The notes under the pieces: generated by a model
Seen by the model: the letters and a program-made list of their open reading frames with translations, nothing else
Told to the model about the DNA's origin: nothing
Databases searched by the model: none
Made by a program: the position numbers and the translations under genes
Virus record (IMG/VR): IMGVR_UViG_2721755720_000003
DNA from: a virus
Lineage: Duplodnaviria > Heunggongvirae > Uroviricota > Caudoviricetes
Direction: 5' to 3' (one strand)
DNA: 50,985 nucleotides
Part shown: positions 11,086-39,037 of the stretch, one piece after another
Numbering within the stretch: the first letter of the stretch is position 1
Layout: every line of letters starts with the position of its first letter

Positions 11086-11423
11086 CAGATCACCACTTCG
11101 TCAAACTGACACGAAAAATCGGTATAGGTGATATGTTCTGTCGCTGACCACGTTCGACACACCACTCTGATTTTTCTGTTAATACCAGGCGGGCGCCAAA
11201 AAAAAGATTTATAGCCTTCATGCCGGGCTAAAAATTTTTCAAATGAATCACGTTCATTCGCCTCAACTTTGAAATCACAGGTGAAAACGCGCAGAGAATG
11301 ATTAAGTCCATTTGGACTTCGTTGCTCATAACCATCGCCAAATCTTACAGTTTTTATCGATGGTTTATTTTCTGTTTTCATTCCATCCTCTGGTAACCAG
11401 TGAAATTCTTCCGTATTAGCCAC
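11085..11423 (-). CDS. M: Minor tail protein M
   Basis: 112 aa; [10 protein letters not shown] motif; position between the tape measure gene and L. Confidence 0.75.
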
Positions 11424-14400
11424 TTAACATTCCCCCATCACGTCGCATATTTAACAGATTGCCCTGCACCCGCTGATCAACCATCCCCATAAGTGCTTTT
11501 ATTGCCTGAGGGCCAATCTCTCCATTCTGGCCGTCATTTTGAATAGTGATTTGGTATACAGGGGCATAGGTAATATCTCCGCCTCCATTACCACTTTTAC
11601 TATTAATAGCTCTGACACCAAGAGAACCATCGGAAGTTCGTGTTAATGGCATAATGGCTTCCGGACCAGCCTCACCAAAAACACCAGCCCCTTTTGCAAA
11701 AGCAAAAAATTGCGGGGAATCATAAATACCGTTCGAATACGTGTTCAATGACGGAGACTCATAAACACCGCCCTTTGCATTCGGAATAAATTTACTAATA
11801 GCACTCCCGATAGTTCCTAAAATCCCCCCCGAAGAACTGTTACTAATGCTGTCGAAAATCCCAGTAATTGAAGCCTTTAATGCTATTCGACTAAGATCCG
11901 AAATCACGGAAGTAGCGAAAGAACGAAAATTTGCCTTGCCTGTCGTGACAAAATCACCCAGCGCATCGGTCATTCCATCAAACATCTGAGTCGTGGTTGA
12001 TTTTATCTGCTCACTGATATCCTTAGTGTCATCCAGCCAGTTATTGAATCCCTGGGAGGCACCACTAACCCAGTCTCCTGCCTGAATATCGAGCTGCTCG
12101 TTTTTCTGTCTGACAATTTCTTTTTCTCGTTCCAGAGCATCATTCAGAGCCTGCATTTTCTCCTGAAAAACATGATTTGACATCCCACGGGATTTATCTG
12201 CATAGTCACGTTCAAGTTGCAGACGCTGATTGTTATATTCACGTTCAATCCGCAGTAATTCCTGCTGGCGTTGCTGATTTTTATCGCCAACCCCATAACC
12301 AGCAATCTGAATATCATACCCCTGTTGACGATTATCAATCGAAGCCTGCAATGAATCACGCCATGCAGCTATTTCGGCGGATTCCTTGATTAGCCTGTTA
12401 TTTTTTTCAATCGCAACATTTTTCTCCATCAACGCGGTTATTTCTTCCCGGTGTAAGAGAAGCGATTTCTGATCCTTGGTTAATTTCGATGACGGTCGTG
12501 ACTCCAGGTCGGCAATCTGCTGACGCCACTTAACCAGTTCCTGTTCAGAGGAACTTAATTTAACGGTTAATTCAGTTTGTGAACTTAGCAACGCATTCTG
12601 TTGATTCAGATGATCAATCATTCGTTGGGCAGCATCATCCGAATAACCTTTCGCCTTTGGTTGCTTTGGATCTTTATAACGCTCATTTATTTGAGCGATA
12701 AGATTATTATATTCTTCCTTTGAATACTGACTCTTTAGTTTTTCCAGTTTTGCAAGTTCACTAGCTCTCTGCTGCTCCCGGGTCTGATATTGTTTTGAAA
12801 AGGCATCTGCTCTCTGTCTGAGTTCAATTCCTTCCTGTTGTCGCTTGTTGTAATCGTTTATTGATGAATTTAGTACGTCCTGAGCAATTTTTTCTGCTTG
12901 AAGTACGCCCAATTGCTGCTTTAATCGTGCCAGCCTTTTATTTTGAGCTCCGCCATCTCCAATGCCACCTAACCCGAAAACTCCGGGTCGGGTATTTTTT
13001 TCTATTTCATCAATTTGACGGAGAACATCTGAGATTTTTTGATCAAGGGAGGCCTCACGGCCAATATCCAGCATGGAATCCCATGCCCATTTTGCGGAGT
13101 CTGCGACAGCTTTCCATGCAGTCTCAAGATAACCAAGATTTTCTTTAATCTGGTTGGTGCGCTGGATCATTGAGGATGAGTATGCTTCTGTCGCAATGCG
13201 GGCGGCCTCCTGCTGGTTCCCTTCATCCTGTAGCGCCTTAATCTGGTTATAAGTCGCAATTGTCAGAAAATGGTACTGATCATTAAGTTTTGATATGGCA
13301 CTGACAGGATCCTTTGCAATTTCATTGAAGTCATTAACCAGTTGTTCGGTTGATATTCCTGTTACTTCGCTCGTTTTTACTATCGCTGTCGTCACTTGCT
13401 CCAGCGAACTGCTCGCTACCTTTCCCGAACGCACAAGCTGGTTTAATACTGCCGCCGCAGCGCCAGTTGTCGAATCAGCCGCATTCCCGGCACGTTGAGC
13501 TATATCGGCCAATTGCCCGCTGGTTGTCCCCAACTGATTTCCGGTAAGAATAAGAGATTTATTAAATTCGTCCTGCTCCTGAGAGCCTTTATAGTAAGCC
13601 AGCCCTAAGACGCCAACGGCTGCTGCGGCCAGGGTAAAAGGATTAATTAATCCCAGCACATAAGAACCAACACCTTTGATCGCCGGGCCAATCCCACCGA
13701 ACATATCTTTTAGCTGGCCGCCCTGCTGCATTAACACCATAAAAGGCGACTGACCAGTGGACAACCCAACAACAATATCCGTCATTTGTGCAGGCAACAT
13801 GCGCATAGCAAAAGCCGTTTGTTTTGCCGACATTCCGGTTTTGCTTAATTGAGATTGAGTAACCTCAAGCTCACTCCGCATAGCACGAAGTTTTCCAGAA
13901 AGTTCCTCATACATTTCAGGAGAGAGCATCCCCTTAGCTTTTGCTTCATTGAGCTGTTTCTGTTGTTCTACCAGACGATTAAAAGCAGTTCCGACAGGGT
14001 CAAGTTGAGCAATCAGACGTTGCAAAGCAGCAACCTGTTCATCATGCGCTTTTGCTGCTTCTCGCTCTGCCTGAGCCTCTCCGGTAAGCTCTCGCCGTGT
14101 TTCCTGTATTTTTCGGCTATAATTCTCAAACTGAGAACCATTTATTTTCCCGGATGCAAACGCAGCATTAAGTTCATCCTGCTGTTGTTCAAGATTTCTT
14201 AGCGCCGCAGCCAGAGGGTCGATCTTGTCCAGCATTCTTTGAAAGGCCTGAGCCTGCGCTTCCTGCTGGGCGGCAGCAAGTTTTCCGGCCTTCTCGGCTT
14301 CTCTCTGCGCTTGCGCAACCCCGCTCAATTCCTCTGTGGTTTCATTAAGTTTACGGACAAGAAATTCATATTCTTCTTTATCAATAAGCCCTTTATCGAA

Positions 14401-14649
14401 AAATTTCTTTAATTCAGAATAGCGTCGACCGACAGTATCAATTGCGGCACCAACTGGATCAATAGCTGCTTTTAATTTTGCGAGCGCGTTCTTCTCATCT
14501 TCTGTTGCCTTAGTCACTTTCCCTGCGCTATTTGCAGCAGTTTCCCCGGCCTGCGTCATTTTGACTAATGAGGAGGTCAGATTGTCAGCATTATTTTTTG
14601 CTCCAGTGCTATCAATAATTATTGCGAGACGCGAGGTTTGCTCTGCCAT
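11416..14649 (-). CDS. H: Tail length tape measure protein
   Basis: 1077 aa, coiled-coil-rich with a C-terminal Gly-rich region; position downstream of G/GT. Confidence 0.9.
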
Positions 14650-14812
14650 TTATTAAAACTCCAGACAACAAAAAGCCCACCGAAGTGGGTTTCAGGCGAC
14701 ATAATAGTAGATATAGCGATTACGAGGCCACGCAATGCTTTTCTCCAGGAGCATCATCGATTTAATTAAAGACACCATCACATCTCTGTAACAGAGTGTA
14801 CGTAATTAACAA

Positions 14813-15133
14813 CTACACACACTGATTCTGAAAATACTGGTCATCCAGTGCAAAGATCACTGCTTCAAACTCATCGCGCTCAATCAATACCGGATGAGTG
14901 GCTAAATATTCATTTATCTCTGTCAGAGATAAAGGCAAAGGCACCCCGGTCATTCCAGCATAACGTCGGGCACGGGATATTACCGAATAGGCGTACAACA
15001 ATTCCTTAAGCACCGGGTCTATTTCTGGTTCCGGTATCGGTGGCAACCTGAGTTTTTCTCGCTTCCATCTTGCCTTTTCCCCCCTTTCTCCCCCGAACTC
15101 CGATAACCACCGCTGGGCGGCTATGGCTTTTTT
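14813..15133 (-). CDS. T-frame extension of the G-T tail chaperone fusion, entered by -1 frameshift from G
   Basis: The -1 frame is open from the A_AAA_AAG heptamer at 15127-15133 down to the stop at 14813; the ORF track shows only the part from an internal TTG (15046). Confidence 0.65.
   Translation of the reverse strand, partial: KKAIAAQRWLSEFGGERGEKARWKREKLRLPPIPEPEIDPVLKELLYAYSVISRARRYAGMTGVPLPLSLTEINEYLATHPVLIERDEFEAVIFALDDQYFQNQCV
15127..15133 (-). other. Programmed -1 ribosomal frameshift slippery heptamer A_AAA_AAG (G to GT)
   Basis: Heptamer sits 6 nt before the G stop (…D T I K K P *); the -1 frame stays open for ~105 codons. Confidence 0.65.
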
Positions 15134-15358
15134 ATCGTATCCTGCTTCTGCTGCTCTTTACCCTGGGCGATGCTGGCTGCTTCTGCAAGGATCTGCCAGT
15201 ACAACTCTGGATTCTGCTTAAGCAGCGCGATCCCTCGTTCTGGCGTATATTCCAGTGCAACCTCAACACCATTAACCAGTTCACCAACCCCTTTCCAGTC
15301 TTTCAGCAGATAACGAGCGGCATTATCAATGAGTAAATCATCAACAGAATCCACCTCG

Positions 15359-15363
15359 GAAAC
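15359..15363. repeat. IS2 target site duplication GAAAC (left copy)
   Basis: Identical 5-bp direct repeat immediately flanks both IS2 ends. Confidence 0.85.
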
Positions 15364-15454
15364 TAGACTGGCCCCCTGGATCTCCAGACAACCAGTATCA
15401 CTTAAATAAGTGATAGTCTTAATACTAGTTTTTAGACTAGTCATTGGAGAACAG

Positions 15455-15820
15455 ATGATTGATGTCTTAGGGCCGGAGAAACGCAGACGGCGTACGACAC
15501 AGGAAAAGATCGCAATTGTTCAGCAGAGCTTTGAACCGGGGATGACGGTCTCCCTCGTTGCCCGGCAACATGGTGTAGCAGCCAGCCAGTTATTTCTCTG
15601 GCGTAAGCAATACCAGGAAGGAAGTCTTACTGCTGTCGCCGCCGGAGAACAGGTTGTTCCTGCCTCTGAACTTGCTGCCGCCATGAAGCAGATTAAAGAA
15701 CTCCAGCGCCTGCTCGGCAAAAAAACGATGGAAAATGAACTCCTCAAAGAAGCCGTTGAATATGGACGGGCAAAAAAGTGGATAGCGCACGCGCCCTTAT
15801 TGCCCGGGGATGGGGAGTAA
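15455..15820 (+). CDS. insC: IS2 OrfA / InsC (HTH transposase N-terminal part)
   Basis: 121 aa [24 protein letters not shown]…; A6G frameshift window at 15772-15778. Confidence 0.95.
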
Positions 15821-16683
15821 GCTTAGTCAGCCGTTGTCTCCGGGTGTCGCGTGCGCAGTTGCACGTCATTCTCAGACGAACCGATGACTGGATGGATGGC
15901 CGCCGCAGTCGTCACACTGATGATACGGATGTGCTTCTCCGTATACACCATGTTATCGGAGAGCTGCCCACGTATGGTTATCGTCGGGTATGGGCGCTGC
16001 TTCGCAGACAGGCAGAACTTGATGGTATGCCTGCGATCAATGCCAAACGTGTTTACCGGATCATGCGCCAGAATGCGCTGTTGCTTGAGCGAAAACCTGC
16101 TGTACCGCCATCGAAACGGGCACATACAGGCAGAGTGGCCGTGAAAGAAAGCAATCAGCGATGGTGCTCTGACGGGTTCGAGTTCTGCTGTGATAACGGA
16201 GAGAGACTGCGTGTCACGTTCGCGCTGGACTGCTGTGATCGTGAGGCACTGCACTGGGCGGTGACTACCGGCGGCTTCAACAGTGAAACAGTACAGGACG
16301 TCATGCTGGGAGCGGTGGAACGCCGCTTCGGCAACGATCTTCCGTCGTCTCCAGTGGAGTGGCTGACGGATAATGGTTCATGCTACCGGGCTAATGAAAC
16401 ACGCCAGTTCGCCCGGATGTTGGGACTTGAACCGAAGAACACGGCGGTGCGGAGTCCGGAGAGTAACGGAATAGCAGAGAGCTTCGTGAAAACGATAAAG
16501 CGTGACTACATCAGTATCATGCCCAAACCAGACGGGTTAACGGCAGCAAAGAACCTTGCAGAGGCGTTCGAGCATTATAACGAATGGCATCCGCATAGTG
16601 CGCTGGGTTATCGCTCGCCACGGGAATATCTGCGGCAGCGGGCTTGTAATGGGTTAAGTGATAACAGATGTCTGGAAATATAG
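15778..16683 (+). CDS. insD: IS2 OrfB / InsD (DDE transposase catalytic part)
   Basis: 301-aa ORF overlapping insC in the -1 frame; recognised as IS2 InsD. Confidence 0.95.
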
Positions 16684-16694
16684 GGGCAAATCCA

Positions 16695-16699
16695 GAAAC
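16695..16699. repeat. IS2 target site duplication GAAAC (right copy)
   Basis: Matches 15359-15363. Confidence 0.85.
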
Positions 16700-16918
16700 C
16701 TTTGAAATATCAAACTCCTTCGTTCCGACGTGCAAACTGGCATCCATTTTCTCAATGTGGCGACGGATTAATGCATTACGGGAGCGATACTGATCGTTAT
16801 CGCTGCTTGCCACCAACAGTTTTAACCCGTCTACAGGTTTTAAGTCCTTCATTGGCGTAAACCAGCGTTCTCCACCAATGATAATTTTCTGATTAAGAAT
16901 AAACATCCATAACCTCAT
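16695..16918 (-). pseudogene. G: Tail assembly chaperone G, 5' fragment (gene split by IS2)
   Basis: Starts 49 nt after the V stop with a GGGGGA RBS; the frame runs into the IS2 right end; reconstructed junction reads …DISKV-SEVDSVDD…. Confidence 0.75.
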
Positions 16919-16966: not shown

Positions 16967-17929
16967 TCAACTAATCGCCTCAGCACTGGCTTTTGCGATC
17001 ACGGCAGCCGGGGAATTTTTTTTTCTGGTTATCGTAGGTGCTTCATCTGCTGCGGTAATGCTCAATTGAACCTGGATAATGTCGCTATTACCCCCATCAG
17101 GCCATTCACCTGACACCTGAACCTTCGGGAAACTGAAAGTGTATGCCCCCTCTCCATTCGAAAGCGTGAAGCTGAACGGAACTGTTTCTCCAGTCAGTGT
17201 TTTACTCCAGATTTCCCACGCGGCTTTAGACCATGAAAGCGTCACCGTACCGGACGGTGTAAAAGTAGTCGGAATATTTGCTCCTGCATAAGGCGAGCCA
17301 GTCCCGATACAACGCTGTGTCTGGAGTTTGTTATCGAACTGAATATCAAAACTGTCGATACAAAAACCGTTACCTCCGGCAACACCATTCAGGCTTACTG
17401 CTGAAACCTCCTTAAACGAATAACGTAGCTTTCCTGCACTATCCACAGGTTCGCCTTTGATAAAATTCGTATCATCGGCCTTTGATTCCCAGTCCAGTCC
17501 GGCAAAGGTTACGGTCGCTGTAATATCGCCGTCGTTAGGGATCTGCATTTTCCATGAGCCAACCTGCGCTCCTCTGACGACAGAGGCAATTCCGACATCG
17601 GACGCATAGGTCGCCAGAGAAAATGTTATTCGCTCATTCCCCATTGTCAGAGAATCGCCTGACCATTCCGCGCCGAAACAGGATGCAAGAAAATCATCAT
17701 GTTGACCCCAGCGAAATTTGGTACCAACATCACCGCCGACATCCACAGTGCCAGGCGTCGCCCCCTGAGCCATCCGGGAGCCACCAATCTCATTATTTTC
17801 GCCTTTATTCTGGGTGGGTTTTACTCCCCAGCTTGTGCGTTTTAATAAACTCCAGTCACCACTTGCTGGCGTAGTGCCTGCAACCGTCTCCCGGATAAAT
17901 GCCGAGATAACCTTTGCACCTGAACTCAC
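16967..17929 (-). CDS. Major tail (tube) protein, non-lambda family
   Basis: 320 aa; position between the tail terminator-like gene and G. Confidence 0.6.
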   Translation of the reverse strand: MSSGAKVISAFIRETVAGTTPASGDWSLLKRTSWGVKPTQNKGENNEIGGSRMAQGATPGTVDVGGDVGTKFRWGQHDDFLASCFGAEWSGDSLTMGNERITFSLATYASDVGIASVVRGAQVGSWKMQIPNDGDITATVTFAGLDWESKADDTNFIKGEPVDSAGKLRYSFKEVSAVSLNGVAGGNGFCIDSFDIQFDNKLQTQRCIGTGSPYAGANIPTTFTPSGTVTLSWSKAAWEIWSKTLTGETVPFSFTLSNGEGAYTFSFPKVQVSGEWPDGGNSDIIQVQLSITAADEAPTITRKKNSPAAVIAKASAEAIS

Positions 17930-27838: not shown

Positions 27839-28622
27839 ATTCCTCCTCCTCACCACCATGCATGATCTCCACCATGCGCTGCGTCATCCGGACAAATCCA
27901 TTTTCAATAGCCTGCTGATAATCAATGATCACCAGCGCCGACTCCTCGAAAAAACACTGAATTTCAGAGGGGGCGTGAGCGTAATAGTCCGCAATTCTGC
28001 TGAAATTAAACACCGTGTGACGTTCTGCCGCACACAGGAGGAATTTCTCAATATCAGGCTCAAGGGACGCCGAACGTATCCGGCTGATCAGCTCCTGAGT
28101 TTTCGTATCGTCGTACAGTTCACTGATATCCGGTTTACCGCCCGACGGCTCATAAACAGGCGTATCAATTTTCGTCGTATACGGCTCCTCCTCATTTCCT
28201 GTACCGGGCAAAACATCCGTCAACAGTTCATCAATTTCTGTCGGGATGAAGCCTGTCAGGGAGACATCAAAATCAGCATTGATTAGGTCCGACAGCTCCA
28301 TCCGCAACAGATCTTCATCCCAGCCAGCATTCATCGGCAGGCGATTATCTGCCAGGCGGTACGCCTTTTTCTGCTCATCCGTCAGGCCAGACAGAACAAT
28401 GACCGGAACAGAATCCATTTTGAGCATTTCAGCCGCCATAACACGACCGTGACCCGCAATAATTTCGCCCTTTTCGTCAATCAGCACCGGATTAGTCCAG
28501 CCGAATTGCTTAATACTTTCTACCAGTTGTGCCACCTGCTCAGGGCTGTGCGTCCTGGCGTTGTGCGCATACGGTGACAATTCTTGTAATGGGCGATAGA
28601 CTATCTTTAATTTCTCGCTCAT
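27831..28622 (-). CDS. ParB-like nuclease domain protein (ParB/Srx N-terminal domain)
   Basis: 263 aa; N-terminal KIVYRPLQELSPYAHNARTH…IIAGHGRVMAA; I recall K-12 Rac ynaK as a short relative. Confidence 0.8.
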   Translation of the reverse strand: MSEKLKIVYRPLQELSPYAHNARTHSPEQVAQLVESIKQFGWTNPVLIDEKGEIIAGHGRVMAAEMLKMDSVPVIVLSGLTDEQKKAYRLADNRLPMNAGWDEDLLRMELSDLINADFDVSLTGFIPTEIDELLTDVLPGTGNEEEPYTTKIDTPVYEPSGGKPDISELYDDTKTQELISRIRSASLEPDIEKFLLCAAERHTVFNFSRIADYYAHAPSEIQCFFEESALVIIDYQQAIENGFVRMTQRMVEIMHGGEEEEYA

Positions 28623-28759
28623 ACAGCCTTGCTTTATGAATAAAACGCACCCCAGCAGCCAGTGCTACTGGGGACGGAGGGGTTGCTGGTAAAGTTAGGT
28701 ATTGGATCAATGAGTGAGTCAACATAATATTAAACTCACAATTATAAATCAGCCATATA

Positions 28760-30217
28760 TTAGGAGCGCCAAAAAAAACCTGAAAACAATATAATAACAG
28801 GATAAATTTCAAGGCGACCAAGAATCATAGCTATGCACATTAAACATTTTGCAATGTCATTAAGCACTCCGAATGACGATGCAGTAGCCCCAAAACCTAA
28901 TCCCATATTATTAATACATGCAGCCACTGTTGCAAATGATGTAAGAAAATCATATCCCATACCATTTAACACCAGTATAAAAAACACCGTGAAGAGAGTA
29001 TAAAGAAAAAAGAAACTCCATACAGACCTCATTACACGATCTGTAACTATCTTCCCTCCTACATTTACACTCAACAACGCTCTGGGATGAGAAAGCTGAT
29101 TTATCTCGTGTTTGCTTTGTTTGAAAAGTATAAGAAATCGAAGTGACTTAATTCCACCACAAGTTGAACCTATACATCCCCCAAAGAAACTTGACAACAG
29201 CAAAAACACTATCGTATGCGTGGGCCAACTTGCATAATCCTGCGTAGCTAAACCATTATCAGTGAGCATGGAGCTGGCAAGAAAAAACGAATGAATAAAA
29301 CTTCCATGCAAGTCATACATACCTATATGCCAGACCTGGAAAGAGGTAACAATGATCACCCCTAAGGCTATTAACAGAAAGAAACGAAGTTCAATATCTC
29401 TGATTAAAGGTTTTATCGTTTTCCTGCTAATAACAATATACCAAAGAGTGAAGTTGAAAGCCGATAGCAGGGAAAAAGAACCAGCCACCAGCTCAACCAA
29501 ATAGTTATTAAAATATCCGATACTCTCGCTATGAGTTGAGAAACCACCAAGCGAAACTGTGGAAATCCCGTGACAAATAGCATCAAACAAAGGCATTCCT
29601 GCAAGTCTATAACAGACAATACAAGCAATACCTAATAAAGAATAAGTTATCCACAGTGTCCGTGACGTATCGGCCAGGCGGGGAGTGAGTTTGTCATCCT
29701 TAAATGGCCCCGGCATTTCTGACTGATAAAGCTTTGCACCACCAATACCCAATAATGGCAATACAGCAACCGCCAGAACAATAACTCCTAAACCACCTAT
29801 AAAATTTAACTGTGACCGATAGTACAAATATGCCCGAGGTAATGAACTAACATCATCAATTACAGTTGCTCCTGTTGTTGTTATTCCAGAAACCCCTTCA
29901 AACAGAGCATCAATGAACGTTAAATTAAGTTCTGAGTCAATCCATAAAGGGAATGCACTAATAACAGAAAACAAAATCCAAAACATTACAATTATAATAA
30001 ACCCATCACGGGTACGTAATTGAATGCCAGATTTCTTAGTTGTATACCACGCTCCGCCACCAATGCAAAAAAATATAACGAAAGTTATAAAGAAAACGAA
30101 CAGGCTTTTTTCTTTATAAAACAATGCTACAACCATTGGTGGCAACATTGAAAGACTATAGAGCCAAACCAGGAACCCACACATATGAGTAACAACTCTT
30201 ACATGAGATGTATTCAT
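28760..30217 (-). CDS. trkG: TrkH/TrkG-family K+ uptake membrane protein
   Basis: 485 aa polytopic membrane protein recognised as Rac TrkG; AT-rich codon usage relative to neighbours. Confidence 0.9.
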   Translation of the reverse strand: MNTSHVRVVTHMCGFLVWLYSLSMLPPMVVALFYKEKSLFVFFITFVIFFCIGGGAWYTTKKSGIQLRTRDGFIIIVMFWILFSVISAFPLWIDSELNLTFIDALFEGVSGITTTGATVIDDVSSLPRAYLYYRSQLNFIGGLGVIVLAVAVLPLLGIGGAKLYQSEMPGPFKDDKLTPRLADTSRTLWITYSLLGIACIVCYRLAGMPLFDAICHGISTVSLGGFSTHSESIGYFNNYLVELVAGSFSLLSAFNFTLWYIVISRKTIKPLIRDIELRFFLLIALGVIIVTSFQVWHIGMYDLHGSFIHSFFLASSMLTDNGLATQDYASWPTHTIVFLLLSSFFGGCIGSTCGGIKSLRFLILFKQSKHEINQLSHPRALLSVNVGGKIVTDRVMRSVWSFFFLYTLFTVFFILVLNGMGYDFLTSFATVAACINNMGLGFGATASSFGVLNDIAKCLMCIAMILGRLEIYPVIILFSGFFWRS

Positions 30218-30354
30218 ATCTAAATATTCTTTCAATTATAACCACCTTGCTGCAATATTATGATTATACTGTATAAAATTTAACTCCTCTTAGATCTTAC
30301 TTCACTGTTCCTTATGAAACAATCATCAAAATGAATCATATTGTAGTTAAGATT

Positions 30355-32175: not shown

Positions 32176-32325
32176 TTCTTGCTCCTCAATCCATTAAAAT
32201 CTCAGCAATAGTAGTTGTTACGTCCGCCACTGGCTCAGAGCTGACTATCCGCTAAATTTAGCTCAGTGCCGTAGCTGTGTCAGAACAAACCTAAGCCGAA
32301 ACCGTTTATTACAAAACAATAAATA

Positions 32326-32754
32326 TCAGGGTTTAAAATCCAGCACCCCATTTTGAAATACTTTATATACTTCCGGCGAAGGGGGGGCAGGTATATCAGC
32401 ATTCTTTATCGCATTCATCGCTTCACGACATAAATCGAGGTCTCCACTTTCTCTTTTAACCTCCAGTAGAAGGCCATTCGGGGCCATATGCATTCTCAGT
32501 GTACACTCTTTTCCTGAATACTTACTCGCATCCCCGAACTGTTTTTCGATGGCGCTCTTGATTTGATGGGCATACAGACGGATATCCTCACTAACATCAG
32601 AAGTACGTTCAGATGAACTCACATACTGTGTCTCTATTGCTTTATCGGAGTAATATGATGTACGGTCATGATAATTTGTCGATACAGCATCAGTGCACCC
32701 GATAATAATCCCACTAATAATCAACGTAAGAATTGATGCGCTACGAAAACCCAT
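32326..32754 (-). CDS. Outer-membrane lipoprotein with a TolA-domain-III-like C-terminal domain (paralog A)
   Basis: Lipobox IIGC; C-terminal YAHQIKSAIEKQFGDASKYSGKECTLRMHMAPNGLLLEVK…PEVYKVFQNGVLDFKP closely resembles the E. coli TolA C-terminus as recalled. Confidence 0.75.
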   Translation of the reverse strand: MGFRSASILTLIISGIIIGCTDAVSTNYHDRTSYYSDKAIETQYVSSSERTSDVSEDIRLYAHQIKSAIEKQFGDASKYSGKECTLRMHMAPNGLLLEVKRESGDLDLCREAMNAIKNADIPAPPSPEVYKVFQNGVLDFKP

Positions 32755-35643: not shown

Positions 35644-37908
35644 TTATACGGAAACTGGCACACGAGCAGGCAATGGATAGTGAGCCCAGTTATTAGCATT
35701 TAAAGCTCTTACGCCATCAGCATAAACTTGTGTGTTTCCATCTAATGATTTTAAAGTTACTACAATAGTTACAGGTAAAGGCTCCATTAAGGCCGGTTCA
35801 TTCGCTCTCAACGTTGTTTTAGCCTGAAGAGCCCAGTTACCCGAAGTAATTCCTTTATTAAATGCCTTGCGATGAATTTTTACTGGTGACCACTTTCCAC
35901 CATGCTCAATTTGAGCTCTCTCATATCCAGATTGACCGTTTTCTCCTTCCATAGGCACTTTTCCTTTTATAGTATTATTCTCAATTAAGCCAAAACTTAG
36001 CTCTACGTTCGCGCGAACATATTCACTGCCGGCATTAGGATTCAGTGGTGGTGCATATGCAGCAGTAATTACAATCTCACCTTTAAATTTTCCATTTTGA
36101 ATAAGTGCCGATGGTATGGGATAGTTTTCCTTTCTCCACCTCATCCCAGGAACCAAGAATGTTTGGAAAATCAGAGTAAACCTATCATCACTATCATATA
36201 AGGTCTCAATAACTTCATTAGGAATTCCCGCTCCCAAATAGCGTCTTTCACTTGGCGAGTAATCAGGAGAAGATAATTGAGCGGAATGAATTAATAATGC
36301 TTTAATCAATGATGGTGAAACATTAAAGTCTGAATTAGTGGCTATTCTCTGCCATGTATGCGCAGCTAAACTTGCCACAATTGGAGCAGCAAAACTAGTA
36401 CCAAAATTAGAGCAAAGCCTATTATCTGGCCCTACGACCTTTAAACTGCTTGCTCCTACATTCCAAGGTCTATGAACCCCACCGCCAGCATGGATTATAT
36501 CTGGCTTTGGAGTAAATACAGGCCCAGGGCCACGACGAGTATATGGTGTCGGTGTTCCAATTTCACTTAAAGCATCATTAGCTTCCATATGAGAAACTGA
36601 ACCAACTGTTAGTGCTCGGACTGACTCTCCAGGAGAGGAAATTAAATCAGCACCTCCAAGCGGTTCAGGATTTGGCCATGTACGTATAGGTTCATCTACA
36701 TAATTACCTGCAGCAACTACAAACAAAATACCAAATTTATCGCTGAGCCGATCTAACTCCATCGCAAAATCACTAAACGTCTGCTCATTACATGGTCCGC
36801 CTCCCAAAGACAAATTCCAGACTTTTATATCTGGTCTTTTATTTACAGCATCTGCTAGCCTCAGAATTAAATCTGATATATAAGATCCATTTTCATCTAA
36901 GGCACAAACATCATGGATTTTAGATTTTGTATCAGGAATCCATGGATGATTGTCATTTAAAAAATGAGCGCCTGATATCAATGAAGACACCATAGTCCCA
37001 TGTTCATAACTCGTATCAGGAGGAATTACGTATGTTTCCCTACTCACTACCCAAGGAGTAATTGTTGCCGCGATGGGGCTTACCCCAGTGTCAAATACAG
37101 CAACAATGGGTAATTCTTCTGATGGTACGGGAAAGCTATTTGTTTCAATGCCAACAGAATCACTTACACTAACCGGGAATGCTGAATATTTTGGTTCTGG
37201 AATTAACGTTCTTATACCCGGGTAATTAATGAGAATGTCTAATATATATCTATCATTTGGGGATAAATCCATTATCCTTAATAAGGGAAGACCACATTTT
37301 TGTCTAATCTCATCATATTTAACTCCGTGTTGTTCTAATATAGAAATAACGTTTTCATAGTTGTTGTAAGTTGCATCTTCACCTGTGTACTCAAATAGTC
37401 GTACAAGGATGTTTGATGATTCAAACAAACCATCAGTGCCTCCTGGAACCTTCCTATTCTCATCCCAAGGTTCAATGCGCTCAATCGCGCTTAGATTAGC
37501 CAAAATCGCTTTAATATTCCGATGTAAAATAACTGACTCTAATACGTCAAAACAGCCGGCATGAGCAGCAACCAACATTTCATCTATTTTGGCATGACCG
37601 GCATTTTGCAATCCAGCCTCTTGAGCAATTTTGTTCGGCCTATGCGTTTTGGCTATTCCCTGGTCTCTTAATTTGAAAACCAAAGTACCCAAGCTTCCAG
37701 GGTACTCTGAAAGTTTGGATTCTAAATAATGTTTACTGGTTGTTAAATTTCTTACTAGCCCTTGTCTATATTCGGCTGTTACATCAACCAATACCTTTGC
37801 CCCACCGCCAGCGTTTACTATTGCACCCAAGTCACTACTGGAAAAAGGGATTCTTAACATTGGGTTTGTAACTTTTGCGTTACTAAACTGTGTACCCCTT
37901 CTGCTCAT
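35644..37908 (-). CDS. Subtilisin-like S8 serine peptidase (IetS-like)
   Basis: 754 aa; catalytic triad motifs VAVFDTGV (Asp), HGTMVSS (His), GTSFAAPIVAS (Ser); overlaps the upstream ATPase gene. Confidence 0.85.
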   Translation of the reverse strand: MSRRGTQFSNAKVTNPMLRIPFSSSDLGAIVNAGGGAKVLVDVTAEYRQGLVRNLTTSKHYLESKLSEYPGSLGTLVFKLRDQGIAKTHRPNKIAQEAGLQNAGHAKIDEMLVAAHAGCFDVLESVILHRNIKAILANLSAIERIEPWDENRKVPGGTDGLFESSNILVRLFEYTGEDATYNNYENVISILEQHGVKYDEIRQKCGLPLLRIMDLSPNDRYILDILINYPGIRTLIPEPKYSAFPVSVSDSVGIETNSFPVPSEELPIVAVFDTGVSPIAATITPWVVSRETYVIPPDTSYEHGTMVSSLISGAHFLNDNHPWIPDTKSKIHDVCALDENGSYISDLILRLADAVNKRPDIKVWNLSLGGGPCNEQTFSDFAMELDRLSDKFGILFVVAAGNYVDEPIRTWPNPEPLGGADLISSPGESVRALTVGSVSHMEANDALSEIGTPTPYTRRGPGPVFTPKPDIIHAGGGVHRPWNVGASSLKVVGPDNRLCSNFGTSFAAPIVASLAAHTWQRIATNSDFNVSPSLIKALLIHSAQLSSPDYSPSERRYLGAGIPNEVIETLYDSDDRFTLIFQTFLVPGMRWRKENYPIPSALIQNGKFKGEIVITAAYAPPLNPNAGSEYVRANVELSFGLIENNTIKGKVPMEGENGQSGYERAQIEHGGKWSPVKIHRKAFNKGITSGNWALQAKTTLRANEPALMEPLPVTIVVTLKSLDGNTQVYADGVRALNANNWAHYPLPARVPVSV

Positions 37909-39037
37909 ATGCTCCTGACTCCTTCAGAATGTTTGAAATTACTCTTGATGTAAGTTTGTACAAATTAGCAAGAACTCTGATAGAAAATAATTTTTTATCT
38001 TTAGAACGTAACCAACGAATTTCATCTTCGTAAGTGCTTAAATTTACACCTTCCATAAGCGATTGAGCAAGATACAAACGCCTATACAATTTATGGTGAT
38101 TTATCACACTTGCACCTTCAATAACTGCATCCCTACGTGCATCCAAGCTCACCTGTTCAATTATTGCTCCGGATAATCCTTCCGATTTTCTTGATAAATC
38201 ACTTAAATCTAGATCGCTACATATCATATTCTTTAAACGATTTTTCCAAATTAACTCTCTCTGATGTATGTCAGGCAGAGGCATTGGAATTCTGAAGCTA
38301 AATCGCCTCCAGATTGCAGGATCCAGAAGTTGCTCATGGTTAGTTGAGGCAATAATTACCGTATCCTCTGATGCCGCATCCATATTCTGCAATAGTGAAA
38401 TGACAACTCGCTGAAGCTCACCTATATCTCTCTCATTACCTCTTGCTCCAGCTAAAGCATCAAATTCGTCTAAAAAAAGCACTGATGGCCTCTGCATTAC
38501 ATAATCGAAAACCTGTCTAAGATTTTTGCTGGTTTGTCCCAATAAACTACTAATCAAAGTATCGCAACGCACTGTAAGAAGTGGAAAATCTAAGCGGGTA
38601 GCGATGTACTTAGATAACATAGTCTTACCTGTTCCTGGCTTTCCATACACGAGCATACGACTCGGCAATGCTGCATCAGCTTTAACAAACTCATCATAAC
38701 GTTGAACATTAGTGATAAACTCTTCAACACGGGTACTGATTGCTGCAGGCAGAAAAATCTCTGAACTGTCTAATTTAGGATAACTGACATCAACAGTGTT
38801 GAGTCGACTATCAATATCTACCGGTAATGAGCCCAGAGATATCCCACCTCCAGCCCTTTGAGCTCCTGCCAACGCCTGGGGAGCTCTAAGCAACCTTTCT
38901 CTTATCATTCTGGCTTGCTTGACCTCCCCTTTTTGTTCGAGCTTATCTGCCAGCAACCCAGCATAATTACTAGCCATCGAAGCATTTGCCTTTGTTGCAC
39001 CTTCAATGATTTTTAACACTTCTGATAAATAATCCAT
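37883..39037 (-). CDS. AAA+ ATPase (classic clade; IetA-like)
   Basis: 384 aa; Walker A GKPGTGKT, Walker B VLFLDEFD, sensor-1 ASTNH, Arg finger region PAIWRRF; GGGAG RBS. Confidence 0.85.
   Translation of the reverse strand: MDYLSEVLKIIEGATKANASMASNYAGLLADKLEQKGEVKQARMIRERLLRAPQALAGAQRAGGGISLGSLPVDIDSRLNTVDVSYPKLDSSEIFLPAAISTRVEEFITNVQRYDEFVKADAALPSRMLVYGKPGTGKTMLSKYIATRLDFPLLTVRCDTLISSLLGQTSKNLRQVFDYVMQRPSVLFLDEFDALAGARGNERDIGELQRVVISLLQNMDAASEDTVIIASTNHEQLLDPAIWRRFSFRIPMPLPDIHQRELIWKNRLKNMICSDLDLSDLSRKSEGLSGAIIEQVSLDARRDAVIEGASVINHHKLYRRLYLAQSLMEGVNLSTYEDEIRWLRSKDKKLFSIRVLANLYKLTSRVISNILKESGAYEQKGYTV

Follow-up and report, generated by a model that had tools for sequence, protein, structure and literature searches.

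The 50,985-nucleotide virus record IMGVR_UViG_2721755720_000003 (the window, by which we mean the whole stretch at this length) holds a full-length Rac-type prophage and is 100% identical to the chromosome of Escherichia coli M18, a mouse isolate (NZ_CP010219.1). Inside its tail module, a complete copy of the insertion sequence (IS) IS2 interrupts codon 71 of a gene that we assign to G, the first part of a G/GT-type tail assembly chaperone unit. We propose, with a probability of about 0.85, that IS2 entered this gene after M18 had separated from its sister strain M1 and that the insertion would abolish G, its frameshifted form GT and, by analogy with phage lambda, the tails of the particle.

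The insertion and its empty site

IS2 lies between two perfect copies of the pentanucleotide GAAAC and splits the Ser71 codon of G between its second and third bases, shortly ahead of DSVDDLLIDN, the most conserved motif of the G family. Removal of IS2 and of one GAAAC leaves a single open frame (...TKEFDISKVSEVDSVDDLL...QDTIKKP*), which continues to the G stop and into a -1 frameshift site and matches the intact database proteins P0010 and P0021 residue for residue. The insertion and its 5-bp duplication inside G, first proposed together with the restored frame by a sequence-only reading of the window, are confirmed exactly. The comparison with IS2-free Rac-like prophages that was suggested at the same time also recovered the uninterrupted locus: the reconstructed empty site of 1005 bp is present at 100% identity and full length in at least 10 other E. 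coli genomes, while at least 80% of the uninterrupted region is held by 1059 of the 5426 complete E. coli genomes.

Strain M1, another mouse isolate, carries the same prophage. Over 35.6 kb, only two single-nucleotide polymorphisms (SNPs) and the missing IS set it apart from the window, and the 6419 bp of chromosomal flank compared between M18 and M1 are 100% identical, with 0 differences. In M1 both halves of G are joined with a single GAAAC and no IS, the alignment blocks overlapping by exactly the 5-bp target, which excludes a chance explanation. Because this near-identical sister strain lacks the IS, we place the insertion after the M18/M1 split and judge it to be very recent, in line with the recent origin that had been suggested from the window.

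One of the two SNPs, at window position 15269, falls within the part of G that encodes its C-terminal half; the common allele there is that of M18, and M1 has a variant (G100D). The other, at 32295, is located downstream of a tolA-like open reading frame (ORF). An ORF at 32326-32754, identical in both strains, is labelled 'partial' in M18 and complete in M1 by the Prokaryotic Genome Annotation Pipeline (PGAP), an annotation inconsistency.

The M18 event is a textbook case of IS2 entering a late gene of a prophage and is already annotated publicly: RefSeq/PGAP marks on M18 the IS2 transposase and two flanking pseudogene fragments, one called ydaY ('missing N-terminus') and the other hypothetical protein ('missing C-terminus'). 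What is added here is modest: besides the reading of YdaY given below, it is the dating of the event by an isogenic empty-site strain. The wider importance of the event is small, as a single step, now dated, in the erosion of a Rac-type prophage. M18 and M1, which differ in the presence of the IS, constitute a natural isogenic pair for probing particle formation by full-length Rac, and the pair is equally suited to testing YdaY and its -1 extension as tail chaperones.

Identity of the interrupted gene

Gene position, PHROG family and a conserved frameshift arrangement agree in pointing to a G/GT-type tail assembly chaperone unit, as the sequence-only reading had named it. G is placed between the tail tube and tape-measure genes, all on the minus strand, in the order tube-G-T-TMP (TMP, tape-measure protein). 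Restored G matches phrog_313 'Tail assembly chaperone' with an E-value (E) of 8e-47, and the GT fusion matches the same family with E 1.6e-51, covering positions 13-245 of the 258-position profile. The T part, in turn, matches phrog_1189 (E 3e-35) and reaches 17.6 bits against Pfam Phage_TAC_18, below the curated cut-off of 27.

Restored G has 149 amino acids (aa) when read from ATG 16906, a start that is conserved in homologues and has a GAGG Shine-Dalgarno sequence 6 nt upstream. The gene span initially given, 15121-16918, correctly ran from the G stop to the most upstream in-frame ATG, but the conserved start is the one at 16906. At its 3' end the G frame reads ...ACG ATA AAA AAG CCA TAG and includes the slippery heptamer A_AAA_AAG. 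The same heptamer, with a homologous open -1 frame, is kept at the end of the G homologues of two Klebsiella phages and of the Flyfo siphovirus from bat faeces, at about 64-66% protein identity. The distance from heptamer to stop is one to seven codons in these phages and M1, and the -1 frame stays open for about 105-125 codons in relatives at about 60-66% protein identity. Erwinia phage Gungnir39 also keeps an open -1 frame, although a strict scan of it gave no canonical X_XXY_YYZ heptamer.

This conserved frameshift arrangement, taken together with the position of the gene, is the strongest evidence for a G/GT-type identity. The GT fusion is missed in the RefSeq annotations of the G-T region that we examined, which present two separate hypothetical genes or one only. 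As a by-product of the analysis, the proteins known publicly as 'YdaY', including the remnant in the Rac prophage of E. coli K-12, would be G-type chaperones with a conserved A_AAA_AAG G-T frameshift.

The ydaY gene of the defective K-12 Rac belongs to the same family as M18 G, and PGAP applies the name ydaY both to the M18 halves and to intact genes elsewhere. Residues 31-149 of restored G are matched at 98% identity by the 119-aa YdaY (P0021), which is a 5'-truncated remnant (the C-terminal 80%) of the chaperone gene. In this form the first 30 codons are gone, whereas in M18 the structural module is whole and the gene is broken by an IS. Two further variants were observed among the database proteins: P0041, in which ParB(YnaK) is fused to YdaY, apparently at a deletion joint that removed head genes, and P0010, a 240-aa in-frame G-T fusion produced by a small deletion, which would yield GT only.

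In K-12 Rac, the gene lomR is interrupted by IS5. This is likewise an IS in a prophage late gene that is not essential to the host, and a step of decay, but it concerns another IS and another gene; the M18 case has an isogenic empty-site strain and is hence both datable and open to testing.

The IS2 element

The element measures exactly 1331 bp, begins with TAGACTGGCCCCC and ends with GGGGCAAATCCA. Its left inverted repeat runs TAGACTGGCCCCC...ATCACTTAA and the reverse complement of its right inverted repeat TGGATTTGCCCC...ATCACTTAA; the two are imperfect, as is characteristic of IS2 (imperfect terminal repeats of about 41-42 bp in an element of ~1331 bp), and were aligned by eye with one 1-nt offset. 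A simulated -1 shift at the A6G site gives an OrfAB of 409 aa, free of stops, with the Pfam domain HTH_Tnp_1 in OrfA and the domains rve, rve_3 and HTH_21 in OrfB. Coordinates, OrfAB and domains all bear out a complete IS2 with intact insC/insD and terminal inverted repeats, as it had been described. PGAP labels the product (WP_088895425.1) 'IS3-like element IS2 family transposase, programmed frameshift'.

Annotated IS2 copies in thousands of E. coli genomes share at least 99% nucleotide identity with the M18 element, which is 6-7 bases apart from the IS2 of strains S1-IND-01-A and 025542-1. In length, imperfect inverted repeats, possession of OrfA and OrfB, A6G -1 frameshift, DDE transposase and 5-bp duplication, the likeness to IS2 of E. 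coli (IS3 family) is full, and nothing notable sets the M18 copy apart.

Predicted consequences for tail assembly

In lambda, tape-measure-dependent tube polymerisation needs both G and GT, in a set ratio, and the two bind their own tape-measure and tube proteins (PMC5009743, a review that cites Levin, Hendrix & Casjens 1993 and Xu, Hendrix & Duda 2004, 2013, 2014). Like the M18 unit, lambda G/GT consists of a pair of overlapping ORFs flanked by the genes for the major tail tube and the tape measure, with sizes similar to those of M18 (G 149 aa, GT 252 aa); unlike in these features, no sequence similarity between lambda-type G or T families and M18 G/T is detectable by Pfam. The lambda slippery heptamer is G_GGA_AAG, from which the M18 heptamer differs, and chaperone function in M18 is proposed by analogy.

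In the mechanism that we put forward, IS2 transposed into codon 71 of G in the full-length Rac-type prophage of M18, duplicating GAAAC. In the IS-free allele, some ribosomes would slip at A_AAA_AAG into the -1 T frame and make the 252-aa GT. With IS2 in place, on the other hand, translation from the G start would enter the antisense strand of IS2 and end after 58 foreign residues, at the stop at 16517, leaving a chimeric G fragment of 129 aa. No start codon with a ribosome-binding site would then remain for the rest of the unit, namely the C-terminal half of G together with the slippery site and the T frame. An ATG at 15444, in the left end of IS2, does open a 107-aa frame into the C-terminus of G; restoration of G/GT from it is not expected, since no Shine-Dalgarno sequence precedes this ATG. 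Because the C-terminal half, the slippery site and the T frame have no credible start, neither G nor GT would be made.

As in lambda, G and GT would hold the tape-measure protein and recruit tube subunits, both being required. Chaperones of this type are absent from virions. Because lambda needs both proteins, the induced M18 prophage would be expected to produce heads without functional tails, and judging from lambda genetics the loss of tails in M18 is probable. The downstream tail genes may plausibly suffer from polarity as well: the ~1.9 kb of untranslated RNA between the stop of the chimeric ORF and the tape-measure start may cut their expression in a Rho-dependent manner, an effect that a late antiterminator could suppress.

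A consensus scan for promoters and terminators gave no more than shuffled sequence would, and on the phage-sense strand of IS2 it showed no intrinsic terminator. Among its matches, whose overall count is at chance level, is a GC hairpin with a T run after it (CCCACTTCGGTGGG CTTTTTGTTG), resembling a terminator, at window 14676-14689 on the minus strand; it falls within the 163 nt that separate the T stop from the tape-measure start. Where phage DNA meets the right end of IS2, at window 16677-16706 and again on the minus strand, a sigma-70-like hexamer pair (TTCAAA, 18 nt, TATATT) bridges the junction and is directed into the antisense strand of the element, probably by chance.

Table 1. Features of the interrupted tail module, in positions of the window
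Feature	Position	Strand	Remarks
Tape measure gene, immediately downstream of T	11416..14649	-	Pfam TMP_2 E 1e-81, Tape_meas_lam_C E 4e-26; phrog_24
T segment	14813..15127	-	104 codons, -1 frame; restored GT fusion 252 aa (simulated)
G, 3' part	15121..15363	-	Codons 71-149 and TAG stop; RefSeq: partial ydaY pseudogene
Slippery heptamer A_AAA_AAG	15127..15133	-	In G frame, two codons before G stop; predicted -1 G-to-T site
GAAAC target-site duplication, left copy	15359..15363		One copy only in sister strain M1
IS2 insertion sequence	15364..16694	+	1331 bp; transposase genes antisense to phage late operon; at least 99% identity to annotated IS2
IS2 orfA (insC), 121 aa	15455..15820	+	Pfam HTH_Tnp_1; frame open
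IS2 A6G -1 frameshift site (15772-15778) and orfB (insD) frame	15772..16683	+	OrfAB 409 aa; rve (DDE) domains
Chimeric ORF	16517..16918	-	G N-terminus through Ser71 and 58 residues from IS2 right-end antisense strand; only G-derived product expected
GAAAC target-site duplication, right copy	16695..16699		Abuts IS2 right end
G (ydaY family), 5' part	16695..16906	-	Codons 1-70 and two bases of Ser71; further in-frame ATG at 16918
Tail tube gene, immediately upstream of G	16967..17929	-	Pfam Phage_tube_2 E 9e-32; PGAP 'phage tail tube protein'

The prophage and alternative explanations

PGAP annotation of M18 and M1 describes a full-length Rac-type prophage. Its early part comprises intR, xisR, rcbA, ralR, recT, recE, kilR and sieB, followed by the ydaT/ydaV region; next come the anti-phage pair iteA/iteS, the lysis genes and trkG; and in the late part a full set of head genes (terminase, portal, P22-type capsid) precedes a lambda-like tail module, with tfaR and pinR at the end. 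The genes of the Rac set are present (intR, xisR, ralR, recE, recT, kilR, sieB, ydaF, ydaT, ydaV, trkG, ynaK, ydaY, tfaR and pinR), and the prophage adjoins ydfK, uspF, ompN and nifJ. By gene set and by its locus on the ompN/uspF side, the label 'Rac-like' that had been given to it is correct.

Two cargo regions were observed along the way. A two-gene unit at window 35644-39037 (minus strand), between the replication and late-regulation regions, encodes what PGAP names the anti-phage ATPase IteA and the S8-family anti-phage peptidase IteS. The potassium transporter gene trkG, at 28760-30235 (minus strand), has the lysis genes on one side and the terminase genes on the other, an arrangement shared with K-12 Rac.

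Several observations weigh against an insertion that by itself deprives a functional prophage of its chaperone. The ParB-like gene ynaK (~28437-28694, minus strand, beside trkG) is a truncated pseudogene in M18 and also in IS-free M1. Restored G finds no match in the Pfam copy used or in NCBIfam, sequence and profile searches of the PDB return no related solved structure for it, and the AlphaFold2 model of a 95%-identical homologue (P0004), built on a 26-sequence alignment, is of low confidence, with a predicted local distance difference test score (pLDDT) of 57.

The state of ynaK qualifies the earlier description of an otherwise complete prophage, which holds for the head, tail, lysis, recombination and integration genes: except for G, these are open and free of pseudogene flags. 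The same lesion favours the alternative that survives best, in which the insertion is real and has no phenotype, the prophage having already been unable to finish its lytic cycle and IS2 being a neutral hit on a grounded element. Host-type cargo (trkG, iteA/iteS, ralR, kilR) is typical of a long-resident element, our literature search found no report of particles from full-length Rac, and we found no evidence of infectious particles from any IS-free member of the M18 prophage type. Near-identical records named 'Escherichia phage vB_EcoS-...' were rejected as proof of viable IS-free relatives, as they come from prophage prediction in clinical genomes and not from isolated virions. Against prior defectiveness stand the open, unflagged genes just listed and the conservation of the tube-to-TMP module, at 95-100% in about 1060 genomes and at 98.8% identity in a Salmonella record, which fits recent mobility or purifying selection. 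We regard a prophage grounded beforehand as a serious possibility, though not the favoured one; the IS2 hit may be the disabling lesion, or it may be one more neutral hit.

Tail assembly could nonetheless be rescued, either by a compatible chaperone from another M18 prophage or by rare precise excision of IS2 between its GAAAC copies in a subpopulation. Several lambdoid prophages are usual in an E. coli genome, and IS elements are known to excise precisely, on rare occasions, between short target duplications. However, the 51-kb window contains no second copy of G or T, an intact G homologue elsewhere in the prophage being what the sequence-only reading had named as contrary to its case, and the tube-G-T-TMP module occurs once in most genomes (median 1, maximum 2 places). 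An unrelated chaperone is unlikely to cross-complement, because lambda G/GT bind their own tape-measure and tube proteins (PMC5009743), and loss of IS2 by exact excision across a repeat of 5 bp should be very rare. Such a rescue appears improbable to us.

Least probable, and already strongly disfavoured, is that the split ORF is an unrelated small phage gene with a coincidental -1 frame, an idea that draws on the missing Pfam and NCBIfam matches of the G part, on public names that say just 'YdaY' or 'hypothetical protein' and on a fold search that gave no clear match at pLDDT 57, but that is opposed by the phrog_313 match with the fusion aligned across nearly the whole profile, by the exact tube-G-T-TMP placement, by the identical heptamer and conserved open -1 frame and, weakly, by the best named viral fold matches, which are tape-measure chaperones. 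The database homologues of G that bear the names 'hypothetical' or 'YdaY' all carry PF27119, a family newer than the Pfam copy scanned. Foldseek searches with the P0004 model returned noise only from the PDB (Hsp70 domains at E ~1) and weak matches from BFVD (E 0.01-1, template modelling score 0.37-0.46), several of them named tape-measure or tail-assembly chaperones, which we did not count as support for the chaperone assignment. Literature searches linking ydaY or Rac with tail assembly chaperones or with IS2 gave nothing relevant.

Other insertions in the tail module

No other complete E. coli genome has an IS at the M18 site. That the M18 insertion might be shared was rejected, as the four other full-coverage matches (S1-IND-01-A, 025542-1, MS 119-7 and TUM9868) have their IS elsewhere in the tube-G-T-TMP module. 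These are independent insertions of IS2 or of a 95.6%-related IS3-family element, located at the 5' end of the tape-measure gene, in the tail tube gene, in the T-TMP spacer and in the T region.

With M18 included, five independent IS3-family insertions are found in the module among ~1070 carrier genomes. The median number of IS2-like places per genome is ~3, and a rough estimate from this copy number gives a handful of such insertions by chance; an insertion hotspot was rejected on this ground. It is conceivable, and in our view very doubtful, that an IS in tube-G-T-TMP is selected, as it would ground an inducible Rac while keeping iteA/iteS, trkG, ralR and recET, and that the 129-aa chimera might disturb tail assembly in superinfecting phages sharing the tape-measure protein.

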